The notes under the pieces are model-generated. The model searched no databases, was not told where the DNA came from, and saw nothing but the letters and a program-made list of their open reading frames with translations. Position numbers and translations under genes: made by a program. A DNA stretch of 64,000 nucleotides, taken from the NCBI RefSeq assembly GCF_041886205.1, contig NZ_CP169029.1. One strand, written 5' to 3'. Below, piece after piece: positions 13,695 to 63,539 of this stretch (positions are counted from its first letter, which is position 1; each line of letters opens with the position of its first letter). The stretch comes from Escherichia coli (GTDB lineage: Bacteria; Pseudomonadota; Gammaproteobacteria; Enterobacterales; Enterobacteriaceae).

Positions 13695-14978
13695 GTGAAT
13701 ACATTTTCAGTTTCCCGTCTGGCGCTGGCATTGGCTTTTGGCGTGACGCTGACCGCCTGTAGCTCAACCCCGCCCGATCAACGTCCTTCTGATCAAACCG
13801 CGCCTGGTACCTCTTCTCGCCCGATTCTGTCGGCAAAAGAAGCGCAGAATTTCGATGCTCAACACTATTTTGCATCCCTGACACCAGGTGCTGCAGCGTG
13901 GAATCCTTCCCCGATTACCCTGCCTGCGCAACCTGACTTTGTTGTCGGCCCGGCGGGCACTCAAGGTGTAACGCATACCACGATTCAGGCGGCGGTAGAT
14001 GCGGCAATTATCAAGCGTACCAACAAGCGCCAGTATATTGCCGTGATGCCTGGTGAGTATCAGGGAACGGTATATGTCCCTGCCGCTCCGGGTGGAATTA
14101 CTCTGTACGGTACAGGTGAAAAACCGATTGATGTGAAGATTGGGCTTTCCCTTGATGGTGGCATGAGCCCTGCCGACTGGCGTCACGACGTCAACCCGCG
14201 CGGCAAATATATGCCAGGTAAACCAGCGTGGTATATGTACGATAGCTGCCAGAGCAAACGCAGCGACAGTATCGGTGTTCTCTGCTCTGCGGTCTTCTGG
14301 TCACAAAACAATGGCCTGCAACTGCAAAATCTGACCATCGAAAACACGCTGGGCGATAGCGTAGATGCAGGTAACCATCCGGCGGTGGCACTGCGTACTG
14401 ATGGTGACCAGGTACAGATTAACAACGTTAACATTCTCGGTCGTCAGAACACCTTCTTTGTCACCAACAGCGGTGTGCAGAACCGTCTGGAAACGAATCG
14501 TCAGCCGCGTACGCTGGTGACCAACAGCTACATTGAAGGGGATGTGGATATCGTTTCTGGTCGCGGCGCAGTGGTGTTCGATAACACCGAATTCCGCGTG
14601 GTGAACTCACGTACTCAGCAAGAAGCGTATGTGTTTGCACCGGCTACGCTGTCCAACATTTACTACGGTTTCCTCGCCGTAAACAGCCGTTTCAATGCTT
14701 TCGGTGATGGTGTGGCGCAACTGGGCCGCTCGCTGGATGTTGATGCCAATACCAACGGTCAGGTGGTGATCCGTGATAGCGCCATCAACGAAGGTTTTAA
14801 CACGGCTAAACCGTGGGCCGATGCGGTGATCTCTAATCGTCCGTTTGCGGGTAATACCGGCAGCGTAGATGATAACGACGAAATACAGCGCAATCTGAAT
14901 GACACTAACTACAACCGCATGTGGGAATACAATAACCGCGGCGTGGGCAGCAAAGTGGTTGCAGAGGCGAAGAAGTAA
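13695..14978 (+). CDS. ybhC: Outer-membrane lipoprotein YbhC (pectinesterase-like acyl-CoA thioesterase family)
   Basis: Lipoprotein signal (…LTLTACSS), 427 aa. Confidence 0.85.
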   Translation: MNTFSVSRLALALAFGVTLTACSSTPPDQRPSDQTAPGTSSRPILSAKEAQNFDAQHYFASLTPGAAAWNPSPITLPAQPDFVVGPAGTQGVTHTTIQAAVDAAIIKRTNKRQYIAVMPGEYQGTVYVPAAPGGITLYGTGEKPIDVKIGLSLDGGMSPADWRHDVNPRGKYMPGKPAWYMYDSCQSKRSDSIGVLCSAVFWSQNNGLQLQNLTIENTLGDSVDAGNHPAVALRTDGDQVQINNVNILGRQNTFFVTNSGVQNRLETNRQPRTLVTNSYIEGDVDIVSGRGAVVFDNTEFRVVNSRTQQEAYVFAPATLSNIYYGFLAVNSRFNAFGDGVAQLGRSLDVDANTNGQVVIRDSAINEGFNTAKPWADAVISNRPFAGNTGSVDDNDEIQRNLNDTNYNRMWEYNNRGVGSKVVAEAKK

Positions 14979-14993
14979 GAGCTATTAACTATT

Positions 14994-15112
<119 letters not shown>

Positions 15113-15118
15113 CGCTTT

Positions 15119-17380
15119 TTACATCTGACGGTTTTTATTGAAGTTAATCAAACTACCCGCCTTGATAATCTCGCGCTCTTCAGCAGTCAGACTTTCCATA
15201 TAGAGCGTAATCTCCGTTACCGGCGCATCTTCATGGATCACATAACCTTTAAACGTCGTACCCGGATTATCCAGCGCCGCTTTAATGCCAGGGATGTAAA
15301 TGTAATCCCCCACTTCAAAGGTTGGCGCTTCCGCCATCTGCAGCGGTAACATCCCCCAGTTGATGACGTTAGAACGGTAGCGTTTAGTCGCGTACTCCTC
15401 GGCAATATTCGCCAGACCGCCAATCACACGCTGGCAGCTCGCCGCCTGTTCACGCGCAGAACCATCGCCTGGTTTCACCGCATAGACCATGCTGCCAATT
15501 TCAGTTTGCAGCGGATCAATATGCTCCTGACCAGCAATCTGCTTAATGCGCGCAAACACCTCTGTCAGCTCGCTGACATTCCCCGCCAGACGCTGATTTT
15601 CCAGCTCAGCAGTCGCTTTACTTCTGCCAACATAACCGGGATCGCGGCGAGACAGGGTAAACTCCGCCAGACCAATCGGATTTGAACGATAAGAAGAGGT
15701 TTCACCGGAAGGAATCAGTTCGTCGGTGGTGGTCACTTCGTCGAGGATCTTCGAGCACACTTTGAGGACGATATTGTCAGTCAGCGCACCCAATTCCGGC
15801 CAGTCTTTAATGTTCGGTCCGTAAATCAGCGGTTGCTGAGTTGCCCCTTTCACAAAGCCCTGATAAACACGGTTTTTATACGGCGTTACATCGAAGGCGT
15901 ACTCCGGCACGTTGTCCCAGCAATCAAGTTCGCTGGCAGAAGTTAAATAGCCACCGTTTGCCGCAGTCGCAGCGATAGAACGAGCGTCCATCAACGCCAC
16001 CGCTGACATCTGCCCATTGGCTGGCTTAGAGCCTTCGCGATTCGGGAAGTTACGCGTGGTGTGGCGAATACTCAAACCGTTGTTGATTGGCGTATCGCCC
16101 GCGCCAAAGCATGGGCCGCAGAACGCGGTTCTGATGATTGCGCCTGCGCCAATCAAATCTGCTACCACACCTTTTTTGGCGAGATCCATAAACACCGGCT
16201 GTGATGACGGGTAAACCGCTAACGAGAAGGTGTCATTGCCACAGGATTGACCGCGCAGTGCGTTCGCCGCCGCGATGACGTTTTCGTAGTTACCGCCAGA
16301 ACAGCCCGCGATAATCCCCTGCTGCACTTTCAGGCGACCATTTTCTACTTTATCCAGCAGCGAGAGTTTGGCTTTACCGTGCGCCACGCGTTCGGACTCA
16401 ATTTCAATCTCACGCAGAATGTCGATCAGGTTCTGGTTCAGTGTGTCGATTTCATACACGTTGCTCGGATGGAACGGCAGCGCAATCATTGGTTTGATGG
16501 CGCTTAAATCAACGCTGATGCAACCATCGTAGTACGCCATCGGTTGTGGATTAAGCTGGCAATAATCCTGGCCGCGACCGTGCAGCGCCAGCCAGTTATG
16601 CACTTCTTCATCGGTTTGCCAGACAGAACTTAAACAGGTCGTTTCAGTGGTCATAACGTCAACGCTGTTACGGAAATCGGTAGAGAGCGCAGCAACACCG
16701 GGTCCTACGAATTCCATCACTTTGTTTTTGACGTAGCCGTTTTTGAACACGGCACCGATGATAGCCAGCGCCACATCCTGCGGCCCCACATACGGCGCTG
16801 GTTTTCCGGTCAGATGCACCGCAACCACGCCCGGATAGTCGATATCCCAGGTGTCATTCAGCAGCTGTTTTACCAACTCACCGCCGCCCTCACCGACTGC
16901 CATTGTCCCTAATGCACCGTAACGGGTGTGGCTGTCTGACCCGAGGATCATTTTGCCGCCGCCTGCCATCATCTCACGCATATATTGATGGATGACCGCA
17001 ATGTGCGGAGGCACAAAAATACCGCCATAACGCTGAGCCGCCGATAAACCAAAAACATGGTCATCACCGTTAATGGTGCCACCGACGGCGCAAAGTGAGT
17101 TATGGCAGTTGGTCAGCACATACGGCAGCGGGAAACGTTCCATACCGGACGCTTTAGCGGTCTGTACAATACCAACAAAGGTAATATCGTGAGAGGCTAA
17201 TGAATCAAACTTAATTTTAAGTTTATCCATATTTCCGGACGTATTATGAGAAGAGAGAATAGACCAGGCAATAGTGCCTTTTTGGGCTTCTTCTTTTTTA
17301 ATTTGGCCGGTGAAATGTTCTTCGGCAATTATTTCGTTATTACTGGCGAGAAACACGCCTTTTTCAGATAACTTGATCAT
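15119..17380 (-). CDS. ybhJ: Aconitase-family putative hydratase YbhJ
   Basis: 753-aa product starting [18 protein letters not shown]…; the ORF track begins 8 codons upstream. Confidence 0.8.
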
Positions 17381-47597: not shown

Positions 47598-49166
47598 TTA
47601 GCGTGCCGGCTGAGTAGTCGTGGAAGACTGCTCAAAGTGATAGCGACCGGTTTTCAGGCTGCTTGGGCCGAGGCGTGCAAACTTGAACATTAAGAACAAT
47701 TCTGCCACCAGGAACAGGGTATACAGGCCGCAAATCAGCACCATTGAGAAGATGAGATCGCCTGCGGTCAGTGACGAGTTCGCCACAGCTGTCGGCAGCA
47801 CTTCACCGATAGCCCACGGTTGGCGGCCATATTCAGCCACGAACCAGCCCGCTTCTACAGCAATCCACGGCAGCGGAATACCGTACAGCGCGGCGCGCAG
47901 AAGCCATTTTTTCTCGCCAATGCGGTTGCGGATGACACTCCAGAAAGAGAGCGCGATGATTGCCAGAAGCAGGAAGCCACACGCCACCATGATACGGAAC
48001 GCAAAGTACAGCGGCGCTACACGCGGGATGGAGTCTTTGGTTGCCTGTTGAATCTGCGCTTCAGTCGCATCAGCCACGTTTGGCGTATAGCGTTTCAGCA
48101 GCAGACCGTAACCGAGGTCTTTCTTCATGCTATTGAACTGGTCACGAACCGCCTGGTCGGTAGAACCAGAACGCAGTTGTTCGAGCAGAGAGTACGCCTT
48201 CATCCCGTTACGAATGCGTTCTTCATGCTGCACCATCAGCTCTTTCAGGCCGATAACCGGGGTATCCACGGAACGCGTTGCAATGATGCCCAGTGCGTAA
48301 GGGATCTGAATCGCAAATTTGTTCGTCTCCTCTTCCTGATCAGGAATGCCGAACAGAGTAAAGGCAGCAGGCGCAGGTTGCGTTTCCCACTCGGCTTCAA
48401 TAGCAGCCAGTTTGGTTTTCTGCACGTCGCCCATTTCGTAGCCGGATTCATCACCCAGAACAATAACAGACAGAACAGCAGCCATACCGAAGCTGGCAGC
48501 GATAGCAAAGGAGCGTTTAGCGAAGGCGAAGTCACGACCTTTCAGCATATACCATGCGCTGATACCGAGGATGAACATCGCGCCAGTCACATAACCAGAC
48601 GCTACAGTGTGAACGAATTTCACCTGAGCAACCGGGTTAAGCACCAGCTCGGAGAAGCTCACCATCTCCATACGCATAGTTTCAAAGTTGAAATCGGACG
48701 CGATTGGGTTTTGCATCCAGCCGTTCGCAACCAGAATCCACAGTGCGGACAGGTTTGAACCGAGCGCCACCAGCCAGGTGACACACATATGCTGAACTTT
48801 ACCCAGACGATCCCAACCGAAGAAGAACAGACCTACAAAGGTGGATTCGAGGAAGAAGGCCATCAGACCTTCGATTGCCAGCGGCGCACCGAAGATATCC
48901 CCTACATAGTGGGAATAGTAAGACCAGTTAGTCCCGAACTGGAACTCCATGGTCAGACCGGTAGCCACACCCAGAGCGAAGTTGATACCAAACAACTTGC
49001 CCCAGAACTTGGTCATATCTTTATAAATCTGTTTGCCGGAGAGGACGTAGACCGTTTCCATAATGGCCAGCAGGAACGCCATACCGAGCGTCAGTGGCAC
49101 AAAAAGGAAGTGGTACATCGCGGTCAAGGCAAACTGTAAGCGCGACAGTTCGACTATATCTAACAT
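47598..49166 (-). CDS. cydA: Cytochrome bd-I ubiquinol oxidase subunit I
   Basis: 522 aa, [41 protein letters not shown]…; the ORF track begins one codon upstream. Confidence 0.95.
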
Positions 49167-49503
49167 CATGACTCCTTGCTCATCGCATGAAGACTCCGAG
49201 AGTGAACCCCGTTAGAAAGGGTCACACGCATGCCCCAATACAAAATTATTTGCTCGCCTCTATCGTTGCCATTTCATCTAAAGAGGAAAAGACAATGATA
49301 AAAAAGTTACAAATATGTTAATGAATAAACCAAATTGATCCCGTAATTATATTACGCCGCAAAATCCTTACAATAAACAGGTTTTTATTGAGCAAATTTG
49401 CATTTTTCGACAGTGATCAATTTATAGCGAAATTGTCACGACCTCACCAATTTGATCTACGACAATTTATCGTGTTTTGCAGATTTATTTCAAGAATTAA
49501 AAA

Positions 49504-49517
49504 TTGATTTATATCAA
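49504..49517. promoter_or_regulatory. Candidate FNR/CRP-family site in the AT-rich cydAB control region
   Basis: TTGATTTATATCAA matches TTGAT-N4-ATCAA exactly; lies about 340 bp upstream of cydA. Confidence 0.45.
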
Positions 49518-49971
49518 AATCAACCAAATATGTTAATAATGTATAAACCATAGATCATTGGTAATTTTATTGTTAATTTATTGTGAAATATTTATGCAAC
49601 ACAATAATTACAATGAAAAAGTATAGATAAAAAACCAGTGTTTTATTTAACAGAACCGCCCTATCCACTTTTTATAATACCAATTGATTAGAGTAGCCAA
49701 TTTGTTGCTATTTCACATAACATATTTTTATCAAAGTTAATTGATTGTTGCCTTTATGAGCACCGACCGTATGCCCGTTATGTTATTGTTTCATTAGTAA
49801 TAATCACTTAAATGTATCGATGAAACAGGTATGACTTAGCGGGAGTGATTGTTTCTGAGTGAACAGAGACCACTTTCGCCTGATAAATGAAAAATGAGCG
49901 ATTTTTGCAAGTTAGTTTTTCTATAGCCGAGTACGCTCAGCGCCTCGCTTGATTACAATGAGGTTGCTGCT

Positions 49972-50916
49972 ATGAGTCCTGATAATATCAGTTCTGCTGT
50001 CAATCGCTTCTCAGGTTGGCCATCTAATGATCCTCTAAAAACAGATAAAGAATCAATGACATCACCCGTGACTGTGCAGGTAATAAAGATGATTGCCGCC
50101 ATCCTTGACCCACATCGGATAGTCGTTGGAATTGATACACTTTATACAACGCAGCGCGAAACATTTACCTCAGAGAGTCAACAGCTCATTGAATCAGCAT
50201 TGCAAACACTTCATGTGATGAATTTAAATAACCTGGAAACAAATCGCGATGAAGAAGGTCACTATCTGGCTTTTGAATATAACCTTGACACCTCTGACAG
50301 AATAACCGTTTCTGCTTATAATGAAAAAAATCTTGGCTGCTATGGCCAATGTCTTTTAATACAGGATGACGAAACAGACTTATTCAACCTGATAAAAATT
50401 AAAATTTTTGAAGCCAGGCATAATTATGTCGCTCAATTGATGAGCGATCCGGAATTTATGTTCAAATTCAGTTATAGCGCTCAACAAAATAGATTAGAAC
50501 CTCATCTTCTGGTTCCCGCTTATTTTCCTCTAAAAACAAACGAACCGGTTACGCAAGAGGATGTACTGTTACTTTATCGTTTCTTTAAAATGAATGATGA
50601 TTTTAATAAATTAACATCAGATGAATACATGAGTATCATGACACCTCTGATGAAGTGTGAGCGTAGCGTCCACGACCACAACAGGTATGTGACGGGCAAA
50701 GATACCCTTCTCCTGGACTATCCTCCTTCTGGTAACCAGATACATTTCCATGTTTTCCCTGACGAATCAGCAACACTAGTCCTTTATTTTTCAAACAATG
50801 ACCTTGAATGTTTCGTCTTTGAAAAAGATATTCCGAGCCAGTATCGCTTTTTCAAAATGTTTACCAATCTGGCACTGGTTATAGATCAGTTAACCGAAGC
50901 CAATAAAATACTTTAA
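49972..50916 (+). CDS. Hypothetical protein, 314 aa, no recognisable domain; AT-rich
   Basis: Long ORF with plausible RBS (GAGG) before ATG. Strongly AT-biased codon usage unlike flanking core genes, no signal peptide or TM segment visible. Confidence 0.55.
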   Translation: MSPDNISSAVNRFSGWPSNDPLKTDKESMTSPVTVQVIKMIAAILDPHRIVVGIDTLYTTQRETFTSESQQLIESALQTLHVMNLNNLETNRDEEGHYLAFEYNLDTSDRITVSAYNEKNLGCYGQCLLIQDDETDLFNLIKIKIFEARHNYVAQLMSDPEFMFKFSYSAQQNRLEPHLLVPAYFPLKTNEPVTQEDVLLLYRFFKMNDDFNKLTSDEYMSIMTPLMKCERSVHDHNRYVTGKDTLLLDYPPSGNQIHFHVFPDESATLVLYFSNNDLECFVFEKDIPSQYRFFKMFTNLALVIDQLTEANKIL

Positions 50917-50997
50917 TTTTCTATATATCCTCTGTGACAAATATTGCTTAACAATGCCCGGGGATTAATTTTTATTACTCACGGTAAGATTTAAATA

Positions 50998-51480
50998 ATG
51001 ATACCATCTCAGATCTCTTTCAATACTCTTCCTGTCAATGCAACATACGCTTCAGAGACAACAGTTGACACACAAAAATTCTCTGAAATCCTCTACTCAG
51101 CGGGGTGTTCCCTAAAGGATCTGGCTTATCTGAACAGATGTCTGGCATCATTACACCCAACTATCGCCAAAAACATTTATGAAACAGAAAATCTCAGCGA
51201 TCAAAAATTACTGCATATTGATTGCCGTAGTACAAATGAAATCAAGATAAATATCTTTTTTGGTCAGCAACGAGAAGGATTAATTGAAATTAGTTCTGAC
51301 ACAGTTATTTTTTCGATACTGTCTTCATTGATTGACTCCGCCATTTCTAAATTTCAACACCAAATCCCGTTAACGGTTCAGTTAATCCTGAACTATTGTA
51401 TGAGGATTATACTGATTAAATCCACCCTGTCGCGAAAAATGGCCTACGTTATTGCCAGACGTAATAAAACCTTTGATTAA
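50998..51480 (+). CDS. Hypothetical protein, 160 aa, no recognisable domain; AT-rich
   Basis: Co-directional with the preceding ORF, 81-bp spacer, similar AT-rich composition. Confidence 0.5.
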   Translation: MIPSQISFNTLPVNATYASETTVDTQKFSEILYSAGCSLKDLAYLNRCLASLHPTIAKNIYETENLSDQKLLHIDCRSTNEIKINIFFGQQREGLIEISSDTVIFSILSSLIDSAISKFQHQIPLTVQLILNYCMRIILIKSTLSRKMAYVIARRNKTFD

Positions 51481-51966
51481 CGTTACTCATACTGGTAGCA
51501 CCTTCATGTACCTCTCTTTTTTACGAAAAATCAAAAGAGCTAACGAAGGTCATAATTCGCATGAATCATTAATCATTTGTTATTTTCAACATTATTTTTA
51601 TATTAAGCAGAAATGAATTGCAGTGAAATTCGACTTAAATTTTATGAAATGCATTTACTCATGGCTAAACCCATATCACCAAAATGCAAATTAGAAGTAG
51701 ATCACAATTATCTCAATACATCAAATCAAGTTAATTTTAAAAATTTAACATTCATGACATTAGTTGACATAACATACTGAATTAACATGGAAATTTAAAA
51801 CCACACGTTAAACAATCATTTCCCGAAAGACATTTTGAAAATAGATCAATTGCAACATTACGGTCAGATAAAGACACTCCTGTGATATTAAACCTACGCC
51901 GTTATGAACGGCCATAAATACGACGTGTGTAACTTATTTTACTCTCTGTCTTACAAAGGATTACCC

Positions 51967-52416
51967 ATGAAGAAAACAACACTTGTGATTGGCGTTATTG
52001 GCGCGGACTGCCATGCAGTAGGCAATAAAGTTCTGGACCGCGTTTTTAGCAACCACGACTTCAGAGTCATTAATCTGGGCGTAATGGTCAGCCAGGACGA
52101 ATATATTGATGCTGCCATTGAAACTGGCGCTGACGCGATTGTCGTCTCCTCTATCTATGGGCATGGCGATATCGACTGTCTGGGCATGCGCGAACGCTGC
52201 ATCGAGCGTGGACTGGGGGACATCCTCCTCTATGTGGGCGGTAACCTGGTGGTCGGAAAACATGACTTCGCTGACGTGGAAACCAAGTTCAAAGAGATGG
52301 GATTTGATCGCGTCTTTGCCCCAAGTCATGACTTAGAAGATGTTTGTCAGCTGATGGCCCACGATATCAACCAACGTCATGACGTTGATACTCGCATTCT
52401 TGAAGAGGCAATCTGA
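51967..52416 (+). CDS. Glutamate mutase sigma (S) subunit, B12-binding domain (methylaspartate mutase small subunit)
   Basis: [27 protein letters not shown]… carries the cobalamin-binding DxHxxG-type motif (…DCHAVGNK…); about 149 aa. The ORF track begins upstream at 51904. Confidence 0.85.
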
Positions 52417-53804
52417 TGCAAATCGTCTCTGTCGATATTGGATCGACGTGGACCAAAGCAGCCCTCTTCACCCGGGAGGGGGACGCGTTAACGTTGGTTA
52501 ACCACGTACTGACCCCAACCACCACCCATCATCTGGCGAAGGGGTTTTTCTCCAGCCTGAACCAGGTGTTAAACGTAGATAATGCCCTCCCCCTGTTAAA
52601 CAGCGGTGAGGTTGCATTGAAGTATTCCTCCTCTGCCAAAGGTGGGCTGGCGGTTGCCGCAATGGGATTAGTGCCTTCTATCACCCTGGAAACCGCGAAA
52701 GTAACTGCTCACTCAGCGGGTGCTAAAATTGCGCAATATTATGCCTACAAGCTGAACCGCCGTGATATCCAGGCACTGGAAGAAACGCAGCCCGATATTC
52801 TCTTGTTCACCGGCGGCACCGACGGCGGAGAAGAAAGCTACGGACTGAATAACGCCCGTGTGCTGGCAGAATCCAAACTCGACTGCGCCATTATTTATGC
52901 CGGAAACCGGGATATTCAGGACGAGGTGCAGGAGATCCTCGGGCATAAAGACCTGACCATCGTCGACAACGTTCTGCCCGATCTTGACCATCCGAACCCT
53001 TTAGCTGCACGCCAGGCTATCTGCGACATATTCCTTAAACGCATCGTTAAAGGGAAAGGGCTGGATGTCATTGTTGATAAAACAGGCGAAGAACCAATGC
53101 CGACACCATGGACGGTCTTTGAACTGGTTAAGGCAATCAGTAACGTCGATCACAGCTGGAAAGAGTTCATGCTGATCGACATGGGCGGCGCAACCACCGA
53201 TGTTTATTCCGCCTGTGCCAACACGCTCTCGCCCGACACCGTTTTACACGGCGTACCGGAACCCTTCGTAAAACGGACGGTGGAAGGCGATCTGGGAATG
53301 CGCGTCTCGGCAGTGGTGGTTGGTGAAAGTGCGAAAGAGTTAGTCAATGTGAATTTTGCTCAGCAACCCGCACAGCTGGACGCTTTTTATCATTATCTCC
53401 GTCATTTAGTCGCTCATCCCGACTACTTACCCGCAAATGCAGAAGAGAAATATTTCGATACCGTCCTGGCCGGACTGTGTGTGGGTTATGCCACCGAAAG
53501 ACATGCGGGCACCAAAAAAGAGGTCTGCACCTGCGTCGGCAATGTCGATTTACAGATGGGACGCGACCTGACAACCGTGCGTAAAGTCGTGGGATCCGGC
53601 GGATGGCTCTCGCGTGCCAGTCAGTTCGATATGCATCACTGGTTGAAATACCGCGAGTTAAACGACGACGGTAAACGCATTCTCTTACCGACCGAATTTG
53701 AATATTACCGCGATTCCCGGGGGCTATTACCACTGCTGGCAAACGTCGCCAGAGTCGATCCTCTGGCCGCCGCGCGCACCAGTATTCAATGCTTAACCCT
53801 ATAA
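52416..53804 (+). CDS. Glutamate mutase accessory protein (GlmL/MutL-like, actin-fold ATPase)
   Basis: 462 aa, [18 protein letters not shown]…; placed between the S and E subunit genes as in clostridial operons. Confidence 0.75.
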   Translation: MQIVSVDIGSTWTKAALFTREGDALTLVNHVLTPTTTHHLAKGFFSSLNQVLNVDNALPLLNSGEVALKYSSSAKGGLAVAAMGLVPSITLETAKVTAHSAGAKIAQYYAYKLNRRDIQALEETQPDILLFTGGTDGGEESYGLNNARVLAESKLDCAIIYAGNRDIQDEVQEILGHKDLTIVDNVLPDLDHPNPLAARQAICDIFLKRIVKGKGLDVIVDKTGEEPMPTPWTVFELVKAISNVDHSWKEFMLIDMGGATTDVYSACANTLSPDTVLHGVPEPFVKRTVEGDLGMRVSAVVVGESAKELVNVNFAQQPAQLDAFYHYLRHLVAHPDYLPANAEEKYFDTVLAGLCVGYATERHAGTKKEVCTCVGNVDLQMGRDLTTVRKVVGSGGWLSRASQFDMHHWLKYRELNDDGKRILLPTEFEYYRDSRGLLPLLANVARVDPLAAARTSIQCLTL

Positions 53805-53822
53805 CAATTAAGGCTGCAATCA

Positions 53823-55268
53823 ATGGAACTTCGAAATAAGAAATTAACCCATGACGAATTCATGACCGAGCGGCAACAGGTACTGAAAACCTGGGAAACC
53901 GGCAAGGATGTTGAAAACTTTGAAGATGGCGTTAAATACCAACAAACCATCCCTGAGCATAAACGCTTCTCTCTTGCGCTGCTGAAAGCAGACAAGGAAG
54001 GTAAAACCCTTAGCCAACCGCGCGCAGGTGTGGCGCTGATGGACGAACACATCGAACTACTGAAAACACTACAAGAAGAGTGCGATCTGCTGCCAAGCAC
54101 CATCGATGCATATACCCGTCTGAATCGGTACGAAGAAGCGGCTGTAGGGATTAAAAAATCCATCGAAGCCGGAACCTCTAAACTGAACGGTTTACCGGTA
54201 GTTAACCACGGCGTCGCAGCTTGCCGTCGCCTCACCGAAACCCTGCAAAAACCGCTACAGATCCGCCACGGCACGCCAGATGCGCGTCTGCTGGCTGAAA
54301 TCTCGATGTCCAGCGGCTTTACCAGTTACGAAGGCGGCGGCATTTCCTACAACATTCCGTATGCCAAACGCGTAACGCTGGAAAAATCGATCCGCGACTG
54401 GCAGTACTGCGACCGTTTAATGGGGATGTACGAAGAACACGGGATCCGCATCAACCGCGAACCATTTGGCCCACTAACGGGTACGCTGATCCCGCCGTTT
54501 ATCTCGCACTCTATCGCCATAATCGAAGGATTGCTGGCACTGGAACAGGGTGTGAAATCTATCACCGTTGGTTATGGCCAGGTCGGCAGCCTGACGCAGG
54601 ATGTTGCGGCGATCCAGTCTCTGCGTGAACTTGCACACGAATATTTTCAGAGCTATGGCTATACCGACTATGAATTGAGTACCGTGTTTCACCAGTGGAT
54701 GGGCGGCTTTCCGGAAGACGAATCGAAAGCGTTCGCTATTATCTCCTGGGGCGCAGCCGTCGCGGGGATGTCTGGTGCCACCAAAGTCATCACCAAAAGT
54801 CCGCACGAAGCCTGGGGCATCCCGACTGCCGCTGCCAACATTCAAGGGCTAAAAGCCTCCCGCCAGATGCTCAACATGGTCAATGAGCAGAAATTCCCGC
54901 CGTGCCCTGCGGTTGAACTGGAAATTGAACTGATTAAGAGCGAGGTTCGCGCGGTACTGAATAAAGTGTTTGAACTGGGTAATGGTGATATTGCGCGCGG
55001 TACGGTGCTGGCATTTGAAGCGGGCGTACTGGATGTGCCGTTTGCGCCAGCCGCCTGCAACGCGGGCAAAATTCTTCCGGTCCGTGACAACACCGGCGCG
55101 ATACGCGTACTGGAAGCCGGAGCCGTTCCATTGCCAAAAGATATTCTCGACCTCCACCACGATTACGTTGCGGAACGCGCACGCTTTGAAGGACGCCAAC
55201 CGACATTCCAGATGGTTGTAGATGACATCAATGCTGTATCCCACAGTAAATTAATAGGAAGACCATAA
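53823..55268 (+). CDS. Glutamate mutase epsilon (E) subunit (methylaspartate mutase large subunit)
   Basis: 481 aa; TIM-barrel mutase E-subunit-like sequence immediately after S and L. Confidence 0.85.
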   Translation: MELRNKKLTHDEFMTERQQVLKTWETGKDVENFEDGVKYQQTIPEHKRFSLALLKADKEGKTLSQPRAGVALMDEHIELLKTLQEECDLLPSTIDAYTRLNRYEEAAVGIKKSIEAGTSKLNGLPVVNHGVAACRRLTETLQKPLQIRHGTPDARLLAEISMSSGFTSYEGGGISYNIPYAKRVTLEKSIRDWQYCDRLMGMYEEHGIRINREPFGPLTGTLIPPFISHSIAIIEGLLALEQGVKSITVGYGQVGSLTQDVAAIQSLRELAHEYFQSYGYTDYELSTVFHQWMGGFPEDESKAFAIISWGAAVAGMSGATKVITKSPHEAWGIPTAAANIQGLKASRQMLNMVNEQKFPPCPAVELEIELIKSEVRAVLNKVFELGNGDIARGTVLAFEAGVLDVPFAPAACNAGKILPVRDNTGAIRVLEAGAVPLPKDILDLHHDYVAERARFEGRQPTFQMVVDDINAVSHSKLIGRP

Positions 55269-62013: not shown

Positions 62014-62046
62014 CTGCGCCTGGCATCCCGCCAGGCGCAGGTTTTA
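62014..62046. terminator. Hairpin between convergent genes (likely bidirectional terminator)
   Basis: CTGCGCCTGGC-ATCCC-GCCAGGCGCAG followed by GTTTTAC. Confidence 0.6.
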
Positions 62047-62949
62047 CATCTCCTGCGGTACGACCGATTTCACCAGCAACCATTCACGAAATTGCTGCAA
62101 GTGCGGTGAGTCAGACTTCTCTTCCTGCCACGTCATAATAAAACGATTACCGGTACGAATAGGCACATCACAGGGGATCACCATATCGCCACTATCCAAA
62201 TCATGTTGAATAGCGAACCGTGGTAACAGCGCCACGCCGAGATTAGAGCGCACGGCGGCAATCAGCATTGAAAGCAAATCGAAACGTGGTCCGTTGTTGA
62301 CCAGCGGACTGCTAACGCCAGATAAAGCAAACCACTCTTCCCAGCCAGTAATACGGGTGCTTTGATGCAGAAGTGGTAACTCAGTAAGCAGTTCTGCCAC
62401 TGACAGTTTTTGATCGGACATTGCAAGCAAACTGCCACTGCATACCGGCAAAATCTCCTCTTCAAAGAGATATTCTACTTCCGCCCAGGGCGCGCAAAAA
62501 TTTTCGCGCATAATGACAGCATCGTACTCCCGATTAAGAAAATCGCCGTTATTAGCTAAAGAATGAATATTAACAATAATATCGGGATGTAACTTTGTGA
62601 ATTCATGTAAATTTGGGATTAACCAGTGGGTACTAAAAGTAGGATTAACGGCAAGTTCAATAACCTGAACCGTAGGCTGCCAGGTCATAATGGTATTGGT
62701 ATCGCGTTCCAGCTTATTTAATGTTTCTTTTACTATCCCCAGGTAATACTTCCCTGCATCATTAAGAAAAATGCGTTTTTTAGAGTGTGAAAATAATGGA
62801 GTATGTAAAAATTCCTCCAGCGCACTTACTTGTCTGAATACAGCACTTTGGGTTAACGCTAACTCCTCTGCCGCTCTGGTATAACTTTCATGACGTGCGA
62901 CGACCTCAAAAGTCACCAGCAGTTCCGTTTTAGGTATTTTCCCTCGCAT
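62044..62949 (-). CDS. LysR-family transcriptional regulator
   Basis: 301 aa, N-terminal HTH (…VTFEVVARHESYTRAAEELALTQSAVFRQVSALEE…). Confidence 0.85.
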   Translation of the reverse strand: MRGKIPKTELLVTFEVVARHESYTRAAEELALTQSAVFRQVSALEEFLHTPLFSHSKKRIFLNDAGKYYLGIVKETLNKLERDTNTIMTWQPTVQVIELAVNPTFSTHWLIPNLHEFTKLHPDIIVNIHSLANNGDFLNREYDAVIMRENFCAPWAEVEYLFEEEILPVCSGSLLAMSDQKLSVAELLTELPLLHQSTRITGWEEWFALSGVSSPLVNNGPRFDLLSMLIAAVRSNLGVALLPRFAIQHDLDSGDMVIPCDVPIRTGNRFIMTWQEEKSDSPHLQQFREWLLVKSVVPQEM

Positions 62950-63159
62950 AATGCCTTCCGTGAAAAAAATAACAATTCAAAAATTATTTTATAAAAAACA
63001 GTAGCACTAATGAATATCATAATTCAAATAAACAAACCAGTCAGCTATATGTCCAACCAGAAAAATAAAGTGACAATAATCCTAAAACAGTAATTTCACC
63101 TCAGTTATCCACATGCAATACTTTAAAAATATTATTGCAAGAATATTATTCATATACAT

Positions 63160-63295
63160 GAATATACTCTAAATAAGTCGAGTTGCAGGAAGGGAACAAA
63201 TAATGAATCTCCAGAAGATTACATAAGTAAGTGACCTGGGTGAGCGAACATCGATGCAGCACATGCAACTTGAATTATGACAAGTATACAATGAT
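63160..63295. repeat. ERIC/IRU element (second copy in window)
   Basis: …GAGTTGCAGGAAGGGAAC…ACATAAGTAAGTGACCTGGGTGAGCGAAC…GCAGCACATGCAACTTGAA…, about 85% identical to the copy at 17430-17560. Confidence 0.8.
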
Positions 63296-63539
63296 AAATT
63301 TAGATACCCTATGTTATATATTATCTATGTCCGGTTAAATTGAATGAGTCATGGCCTTAAAAGACTTCGCAAAAGATTATTTCTCTTTAACAATAAGCCA
63401 GATTTACCACTTGTAAAAATTGCTATCGCCACATACACTACGCGCGTTTTCTTTCCCTTTTGCTGGCTGCTGACCGGAAAGACAAAATTACCCTCGCAAT
63501 ACAGGGGGGTGTTTAACGTCTATATTTCAGGATAGCGTT

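Follow-up and report, generated by a model that had tools for sequence, protein, structure and literature searches.

We examined a stretch of 64,000 nucleotides from Escherichia coli (NCBI RefSeq assembly GCF_041886205.1, contig NZ_CP169029.1), referred to here in its full length as the window, for a pair of adjacent open reading frames (ORFs), ORF1 and ORF2, that lie beside the cydAB operon of cytochrome bd oxidase. A reading made earlier from the sequence alone (the sequence-only reading) had placed two co-directional, AT-rich ORFs at the edge of an accessory block, set apart by long AT-rich spacers from the core and metabolic genes on either side. Both ORFs were found on the plus strand at the expected coordinates, and they do lie at the margin of that block. 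The local order is cydB and cydA (both on the minus strand), a spacer of 802 nt, ORF1, a gap of 81 nt, ORF2, a spacer of 486 nt, and glmS, the first of the glutamate mutase (glm) genes. The features of the locus are as follows.

47598-49169, minus strand: cydA
49170-49542, no strand: cydAB-proximal control region, the portion common to K-12; homology to K-12 stops at 49542
49543-49971, no strand: distal AT-rich spacer 5' of ORF1, a stretch that K-12 lacks
49972-50916, plus strand: ORF1, encoding a soluble acidic orphan protein of 314 amino acids (aa)
50917-50997, no strand: inter-ORF gap of 81 nt, without a terminator-like site
50998-51480, plus strand: ORF2, a 160-aa frameshifted allele of a 140-aa acidic orphan protein
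51369, plus strand: site of the 1-nt deletion in ORF2, from alignment with strain 14EC033
51481-51966, no strand: AT-rich spacer before glmS (GC 0.31), the presumed site of the glm operon promoter

The base composition of the pair is far below that of its surroundings. GC content is 0.381 in ORF1 (0.356 at third codon positions, GC3) and 0.369 in ORF2 (GC3 0.366), compared with 0.529 in cydA (GC3 0.62), 0.526-0.528 in glmL and glmE, and 0.489 over the whole window, and the ORF1/ORF2 block holds the lowest-GC 1-kb segments in the 64 kb. The spacers are also AT-rich, with a GC content of 0.332 on the cydA side and 0.309 on the glmS side, so the AT-richness of the genes and the long AT-rich spacers were both confirmed. 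The window is chromosomal DNA, and its segment 49200-51900 is 100% identical in E. coli strains ET201, XJ5.2 and others. No Rfam family matched anywhere in 49100-52100, including the spacer on the glmS side.

Both ORFs are real protein-coding genes under purifying selection, which is relaxed in ORF1 and tighter in ORF2. At the local composition a stop is expected at about 0.066 per codon, which makes the chance of an open run about 4e-10 over 314 codons and 7e-5 over 140; in the two remaining forward frames there are 29 and 36 stops across the DNA of ORF1 and 6 and 16 across that of ORF2. The ratio of nonsynonymous to synonymous divergence (dN/dS) of ORF1 against Escherichia albertii is 0.41 (bootstrap 0.28-0.55), compared with 0.78 and 0.91 in the control frames, and among intact alleles of ORF2 it is 0.13-0.25 with a median of 0.20. 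Over both ORFs the control frames gave values of 0.6-5, and dN/dS was significantly below 1 in the annotated frames only. Third codon positions are enriched for differences in both annotated frames, so that both ORFs carry the evidence of protein coding that is looked for in an orphan gene. ORF1 is intact and exactly 314 codons long in 14 of the 14 E. coli-type loci sampled, aligns with E. albertii over 945 nt without an indel (77% nucleotide and 65% amino-acid identity), and is full length (314 aa) in 12 of the 15 E. albertii cluster members listed. Constraint is strongest in the N-terminal 90 residues, where dN/dS is 0.26 and identity to E. albertii is 73-83%, compared with a dN/dS of 0.42-0.47 in the remainder.

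The history of ORF2 is one of repeated damage. An ORF of 160 aa is present in the window, as the sequence-only reading had it, but this is not the normal form of the gene. In most E. coli ORF2 encodes 140 residues and ends in YEDYTD; in the window one G is missing at 51369 (cccggtt to cccgtt, GG to G), which replaces the last 18 residues of the 140-aa form (...NPVNGSVNPEILYEDYTD) from residue 123 onward, and the shifted frame runs on to 51480 to give 160 codons. In the identical genome ET201 the NCBI Prokaryotic Genome Annotation Pipeline (PGAP) labels ORF2 as 'frameshifted'. Different lesions are found elsewhere: ORF2 of O145 strain RM8988-C1 stops at codon 39 through another 1-nt deletion, and that of E. 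albertii is a truncated stub that closes after 23 codons, in both cases beside an intact ORF1. At least three independent disruptions of ORF2 with ORF1 intact are therefore known, namely those of the window, O145 RM8988-C1 and E. albertii. ORF1 can also be lost, being frameshifted in the E. albertii type strain. In Escherichia sp. MOD1-EC7003 (locus L016, 8117-9318) the homologues of both genes are broken by insertions resembling enterobacterial repetitive intergenic consensus (ERIC) or intergenic repeat unit (IRU) elements, translated as ...HTSSCMCCDCVRSPQSLTYVSSWGF.... ORF2 is dispensable and eroding, including in the window, and the retention of an intact ORF1 without it marks ORF1 as the functional core of the pair.

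These losses bear directly on the idea of a toxin/immunity, toxin/antitoxin or anti-phage defence module, which a large and a small AT-rich gene in the same orientation within a variable chromosomal hotspot might suggest. Type II toxin-antitoxin and polymorphic toxin-immunity pairs likewise consist of two adjacent, co-directional genes of unequal size in variable regions. However, an ORF2 that is null in O145 RM8988-C1 and E. albertii next to an intact ORF1 contradicts a role as the antidote to an ORF1 toxin, and with ORF2 null or altered in three independent lineages it is excluded as an essential antidote. Unlike typical toxin pairs, ORF1 and ORF2 do not overlap and are 81 nt apart, the small partner is the one that is lost, and the locus is not mobile and was inherited vertically over the whole history of the genus. 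PADLOC, Pfam and NCBIfam gave no toxin, antitoxin, immunity or defence match (PADLOC, 0 families), no toxin or antitoxin domain was found, and the neighbours are metabolic (cydAB and the glm operon) rather than the genes of a defence island. We regard such a module as very improbable; the reverse polarity, with ORF2 as toxin and ORF1 as retained immunity, is still conceivable. The sequence-only reading had offered toxin/immunity, effector/chaperone and defence functions as speculation, and none of the three gained positive support.

The same reading could not assign either protein to a family, and this has held through searches of Pfam, NCBIfam, PADLOC, PHROGs, PDB sequences, exhaustive HMMER libraries and folds. 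Pfam searches with both proteins and with the ORF1 alignment returned nothing credible (best match Intu_longin_2, E 0.15), NCBIfam, PADLOC and PHROGs had no match to ORF1 or ORF2 below E 0.05, and no PDB sequence profile matched either protein. A word-indexed search of 5.8 billion proteins recovered only five ORF1 clusters, the most distant at 65% identity, and relatives of ORF2 exclusively from E. coli or Shigella. An exhaustive phmmer search of 1.84 billion representatives gave 14 matches, all fragments of ORF1 at 75% identity or more. Relatives were thus detected in Escherichia and Shigella only, since the two matches labelled Collinsella and Citrobacter are contigs of metagenome-assembled genomes at 93-94% identity and probably mis-binned E. 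coli DNA. Searches of phages and true plasmids with tblastn found no real copy of either ORF; three 'plasmid' matches lie on records of 0.73-4.9 Mb that are probably chromosomal sequence filed as plasmid. Profile-profile comparison revealed no relation between ORF1 and ORF2, and no internal repeat was found in ORF1. All relatives are named 'hypothetical' or 'uncharacterized' in the databases, and the literature searched under guessed old locus tags or RefSeq WP accessions makes no mention of either ORF. The pair is a genuine undescribed, Escherichia-restricted pair of orphan genes, although ordinary in kind, as AT-rich hypothetical orphans are common in enterobacterial genomes.

Both proteins are acidic, with isoelectric points (pI) of 4.8 (ORF1) and 4.7 (ORF2), and neither has a hydrophobic segment, signal peptide or transmembrane segment. 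The sequence-only reading had proposed structure prediction and Foldseek searches as a way to place them, and this route yielded poor models and no family. AlphaFold2, run on shallow alignments, reached a predicted local distance difference test score (pLDDT) of 50.5 for ORF1 and 38.3 for ORF2. In these low-confidence models ORF1 would begin with 66 disordered residues, after which come two alpha-beta4-alpha modules, and ORF2 would comprise two helices, three strands and one long helix. The PUR-alpha/Whirly fold, with its beta4-alpha repeats, is among the closest known systems. Foldseek comparison of the ORF1 model with AFDB50 returned self-matches and two uncharacterised proteins of Shigella dysenteriae that scored above background, with no trustworthy fold match. 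The two proteins, A0A2X2IDP3 (344 aa, E 4e-5) and Q32BP1 (479 aa, E 2e-3), align with TM scores of 0.16-0.18, which are too low, and could be artefacts of a low-confidence model or very remote paralogues. Two further candidates were considered and set aside. A GNQIHFHVFPDE stretch is similar to cupin motif 1, yet its spacing does not fit and the second motif is absent. Mimicry of DNA was dismissed since a pI of 4.7-4.8 is ordinary among cytoplasmic proteins.

An apparently disordered yet conserved N-terminus also raises the question of secretion, in which ORF1 would be a substrate of a type III secretion system (T3SS), either that of the locus of enterocyte effacement (LEE) or the ancestral E. 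coli T3SS 2 (ETT2), and ORF2 an accessory protein or a second substrate. Residues S, T, N, Q and P make up 48-52% of the first 25 residues of both proteins, compared with 29-31% of the rest, although the products of AT-rich genes commonly have polar N-termini. In the ORF1 model the first 66 residues are disordered, yet the first 90 are the best conserved (dN/dS 0.26), a pattern in keeping with a secretion signal that has a chaperone-binding region behind it. The AT-richness, lineage restriction and elevated dN/dS are effector-like as well, and LEE, which we take to be present in E. albertii and in the enterohaemorrhagic (EHEC) and enteropathogenic (EPEC) E. coli carriers, was counted on the same side. 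The arrangement also recalls a T3SS effector with its class I chaperone, such as Tir and CesT, in that a larger protein with a polar, apparently disordered and conserved N-terminus is encoded beside an acidic protein of about 15 kDa, and the genes of such systems share the AT-richness and restriction to certain lineages. Unlike in Tir/CesT, the small gene lies downstream of the large one and has often disappeared from loci that retain the latter, and this independence of ORF1 from ORF2 weakens the case for an obligate effector-chaperone relation. Pfam and NCBIfam gave no match to any effector or chaperone family, neither sequence nor fold placed the proteins with effectors or CesT-like chaperones, and the pair lies outside any prophage or effector exchange locus. 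Human isolates from blood and gut and genomes of 4.6 Mb (such as the frog isolate ET201, 4.68 Mb), all of which are assumed to have no working T3SS, also carry an intact ORF1. We therefore judge a type III substrate unlikely, although it is the chief alternative for which there is some circumstantial support. Its most specific form, in which ORF1 would found a new family with a new fold as an ancestral ETT2 or LEE substrate, its N-terminal 90 residues serving as the secretion and chaperone-binding signal and ORF2 as an optional helper, seems improbable to us.

The distribution of the pair was then established across complete genomes. Of 5426 complete E. coli genomes 1135 carry it, at 95.4-100% identity to the window and, save for one place on a 'plasmid' record, always on the chromosome; about 79% of sequenced E. 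coli have lost it along with the glm block next to it. Carriers include O157:H7, O55:H7, O145, O127:H6 (a derivative of E2348/69) and human blood and gut isolates. An orthologue of ORF1 with 65% amino-acid identity occupies the same cydA-adjacent site in E. albertii, where there are no glm genes and no mngRAB, and another lies beside cydA in Escherichia sp. MOD1-EC7003, a member of a cryptic Escherichia lineage. Synonymous divergence (dS) of ORF1 among E. coli lineages is 0.03-0.06, compared with 0.04 for cydA; in the comparison with E. albertii the values are 0.53 for ORF1 and 0.28 for cydA, and a higher value in a weakly than in a highly expressed gene is a plausible account of the difference. 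The shared site in E. albertii and the cryptic lineage and a dS within E. coli equal to that of cydA show that the locus is old and has been inherited vertically at a fixed cydA site since before the split of E. coli and E. albertii. The suggestion that these genes were recently acquired is thus not supported: the low base composition of a recently acquired, H-NS-silenced xenogeneic island is present (GC 0.37-0.38), and recent horizontal acquisition is not.

Conservation of the spacer at 49543-49971 is 98% in the two E. coli serotypes O157:H7 and O127:H6, compared with 77% in E. albertii. The control region at 49170-49542 is of the window type in the pair-carrying E. coli (98-99% identity) and E. 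albertii (94.9%), and identity falls to about 91% in CFT073 and about 80% in K-12, despite which the cydA coding sequence remains 97-99% identical. The divergent, K-12-like control-region allele appears to be the one carried by most sequenced E. coli, judging from the 3176 genomes that fall in the 60-80% identity band. Immediately upstream of cydA, K-12 matches the window over 372 nt at about 80% identity, but the next 474 nt, which reach to mngB, are unrelated; a tblastn search of this mngB-cydA spacer found no remnant of ORF1 or ORF2. In CFT073 window-type sequence continues to about 49807, within 165 nt of where ORF1 would begin, and is different beyond that point; this part of the spacer is all that survives, and no remnant of either ORF was found. 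The sucD-cydA interval as a whole is a hotspot of replacement, for which at least four different contents are known. K-12 has mngRAB there, to which the window adds RtcB, the glm island and the pair. The interval holds a TPR-repeat pseudogene and 1.3 kb of DNA with 31% GC in CFT073, and a 258-aa protein without a Pfam match in addition to ORF1 in E. albertii.

Given this neighbourhood, we asked whether the pair serves the adjacent methylaspartate (glutamate mutase) pathway in an accessory or regulatory role. It lies upstream of glmS in the same direction, and the glm genes occur in 1135 E. coli genomes (1122 at 80% coverage or more), the same count as for the pair, which indicates that the pair and the glm block (glmL-glmE) are present or absent together within E. 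coli. However, the two have separate histories elsewhere. ORF1 occurs in E. albertii without glm genes, and in the E2348/69 derivative (locus L011, 5516-7385) both ORFs are intact while an ISEc13 insertion adjoins glmS, and glmL with everything beyond it in the island, along with part of mngA, has been lost. In MOD1-EC7003 the glm genes (L016, 9878-13242, aligned with 51904-55268 of the window) show a dS of 0.72-0.81, compared with 0.12 for cydA, and ORF1 and the glmS-side spacer are 90-92% identical to the window, which suggests that the glm operon was replaced or acquired separately. The retention of the pair without glm in E. albertii and the E2348/69 derivative indicates that it is not simply cargo of the glm island. 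With a spacer of 486 nt between ORF2 and glmS, and no homologue of either ORF found in organisms outside Escherichia, with or without glm, a role in this pathway is highly unlikely.

On balance we lean, with limited confidence, towards a taxonomically restricted orphan pair of the genus Escherichia that encodes soluble acidic proteins and is old, vertically inherited and often lost. Several observations weigh against this. Nucleotide identity to E. albertii is 77.2% in ORF1 and 76.6% in the adjacent spacer, and because ORF1 is conserved no better than adjacent spacers, constraint on it is weak. The models are of low confidence, so that the description of a soluble alpha/beta protein is indicative. 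The phmmer search returned fragments and no full-length ORF1 representative, suggesting that the library was imperfect for this cluster. Promoter and terminator scans stayed at chance level with no convincing site, leaving operon structure to inference, and data on expression, H-NS occupancy or phenotype of the pair could be neither found nor computed. The first of these points also favours a different account, in which ORF1 and ORF2 are functionless relics in slow decay; the absence of the pair from about 79% of E. coli, its pseudogenisation in the E. albertii type strain and MOD1-EC7003 and the repeated breakage of ORF2 point the same way. Relics would not, however, be expected to show a dN/dS clearly below 1 in the coding frame only, nor an ORF1 of 314 codons in all 14 E. 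coli-type loci and in 12 of the 15 E. albertii members listed despite a stop-prone AT-rich sequence. We consider decay without function unlikely, though it deserves some weight.

If the pair is a functional orphan pair, its setting offers a tentative model of its regulation. A perfect FNR box, TTGATTTATATCAA, lies at 49504-49517 in the cydAB-proximal control region, and a GAGG motif resembling a Shine-Dalgarno sequence precedes the ORF1 ATG by 8 nt. ORF1 and ORF2 are probably co-transcribed, given a gap that lacks a terminator-like site. Motifs resembling H-NS sites occur at 3.6 per kb at the locus and 1.2 per kb elsewhere, a difference that mainly reflects AT content; from its composition the pair may be silenced by H-NS. 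According to Govantes et al. 2000, as cited in PMC3708157, H-NS and ArcA interplay at cydAB, and H-NS, ArcA and FNR act on the homologous region of K-12. The two genes would form a small operon that diverges from cydAB out of a shared AT-rich region of about 800 bp and, as a bicistronic unit silenced by H-NS, would remain silent during ordinary aerobic growth, with any expression confined to conditions of oxygen limitation. Their products would then act inside the cell, with the conserved first 90 residues of ORF1 serving as an interaction module. An H-NS-silenced bicistronic unit expressed under oxygen limitation is the most economical regulatory model, although we hold it as a possibility that may well prove wrong.

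The closest parallel to the pair is with the AT-rich, H-NS-targeted ORFan genes of enterobacteria, which similarly have homologues in a single genus, a GC content 12-13 points below that of the genome, a patchy distribution and a dispensable character. Like those genes, the pair adjoins a region known to be under H-NS control, in this case cydAB. It differs from the typical members in that it was not recently transferred and occupies a fixed site, although it is still AT-rich, and in that its binding by H-NS is inferred. If ORF1 is truly functional, it would be among the few proteins unique to Escherichia, retained since before the split of E. coli and E. albertii yet optional in E. coli, being present in O157:H7, O55:H7, O145 and EPEC E2348/69 but missing in K-12 and CFT073. 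The pair shares a control region with the operon of cytochrome bd oxidase, which matters for gut colonisation, and the position of the pair in a hotspot next to the cydAB control region makes it a tractable case for the persistence and silencing of orphan genes.

From glmS onward the genes are glmL, glmE, a methylaspartate ammonia-lyase gene, an AtuA-family gene, a DUF4387 gene, a symporter gene, a class I fumarate hydratase gene and cobO; after cobO come a frameshifted LysR gene and an RtcB gene, and mngBAR and sucDCBA lie beyond the window. The LysR gene, which lies at the distal end of the island (about 62045-62949), is annotated as frameshifted in the identical genome ET201, and a spacer of about 590 nt with about 36% GC (62949-63538) separates it from the RtcB-family gene. 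Elsewhere in the window, a frameshifted transposase gene of IS621 (IS110-like) lies between ybhC and ybhJ at about 14199-15178, and repeats near 15.0 kb that resemble repetitive extragenic palindromic (REP) elements match sequences near sucB in K-12.

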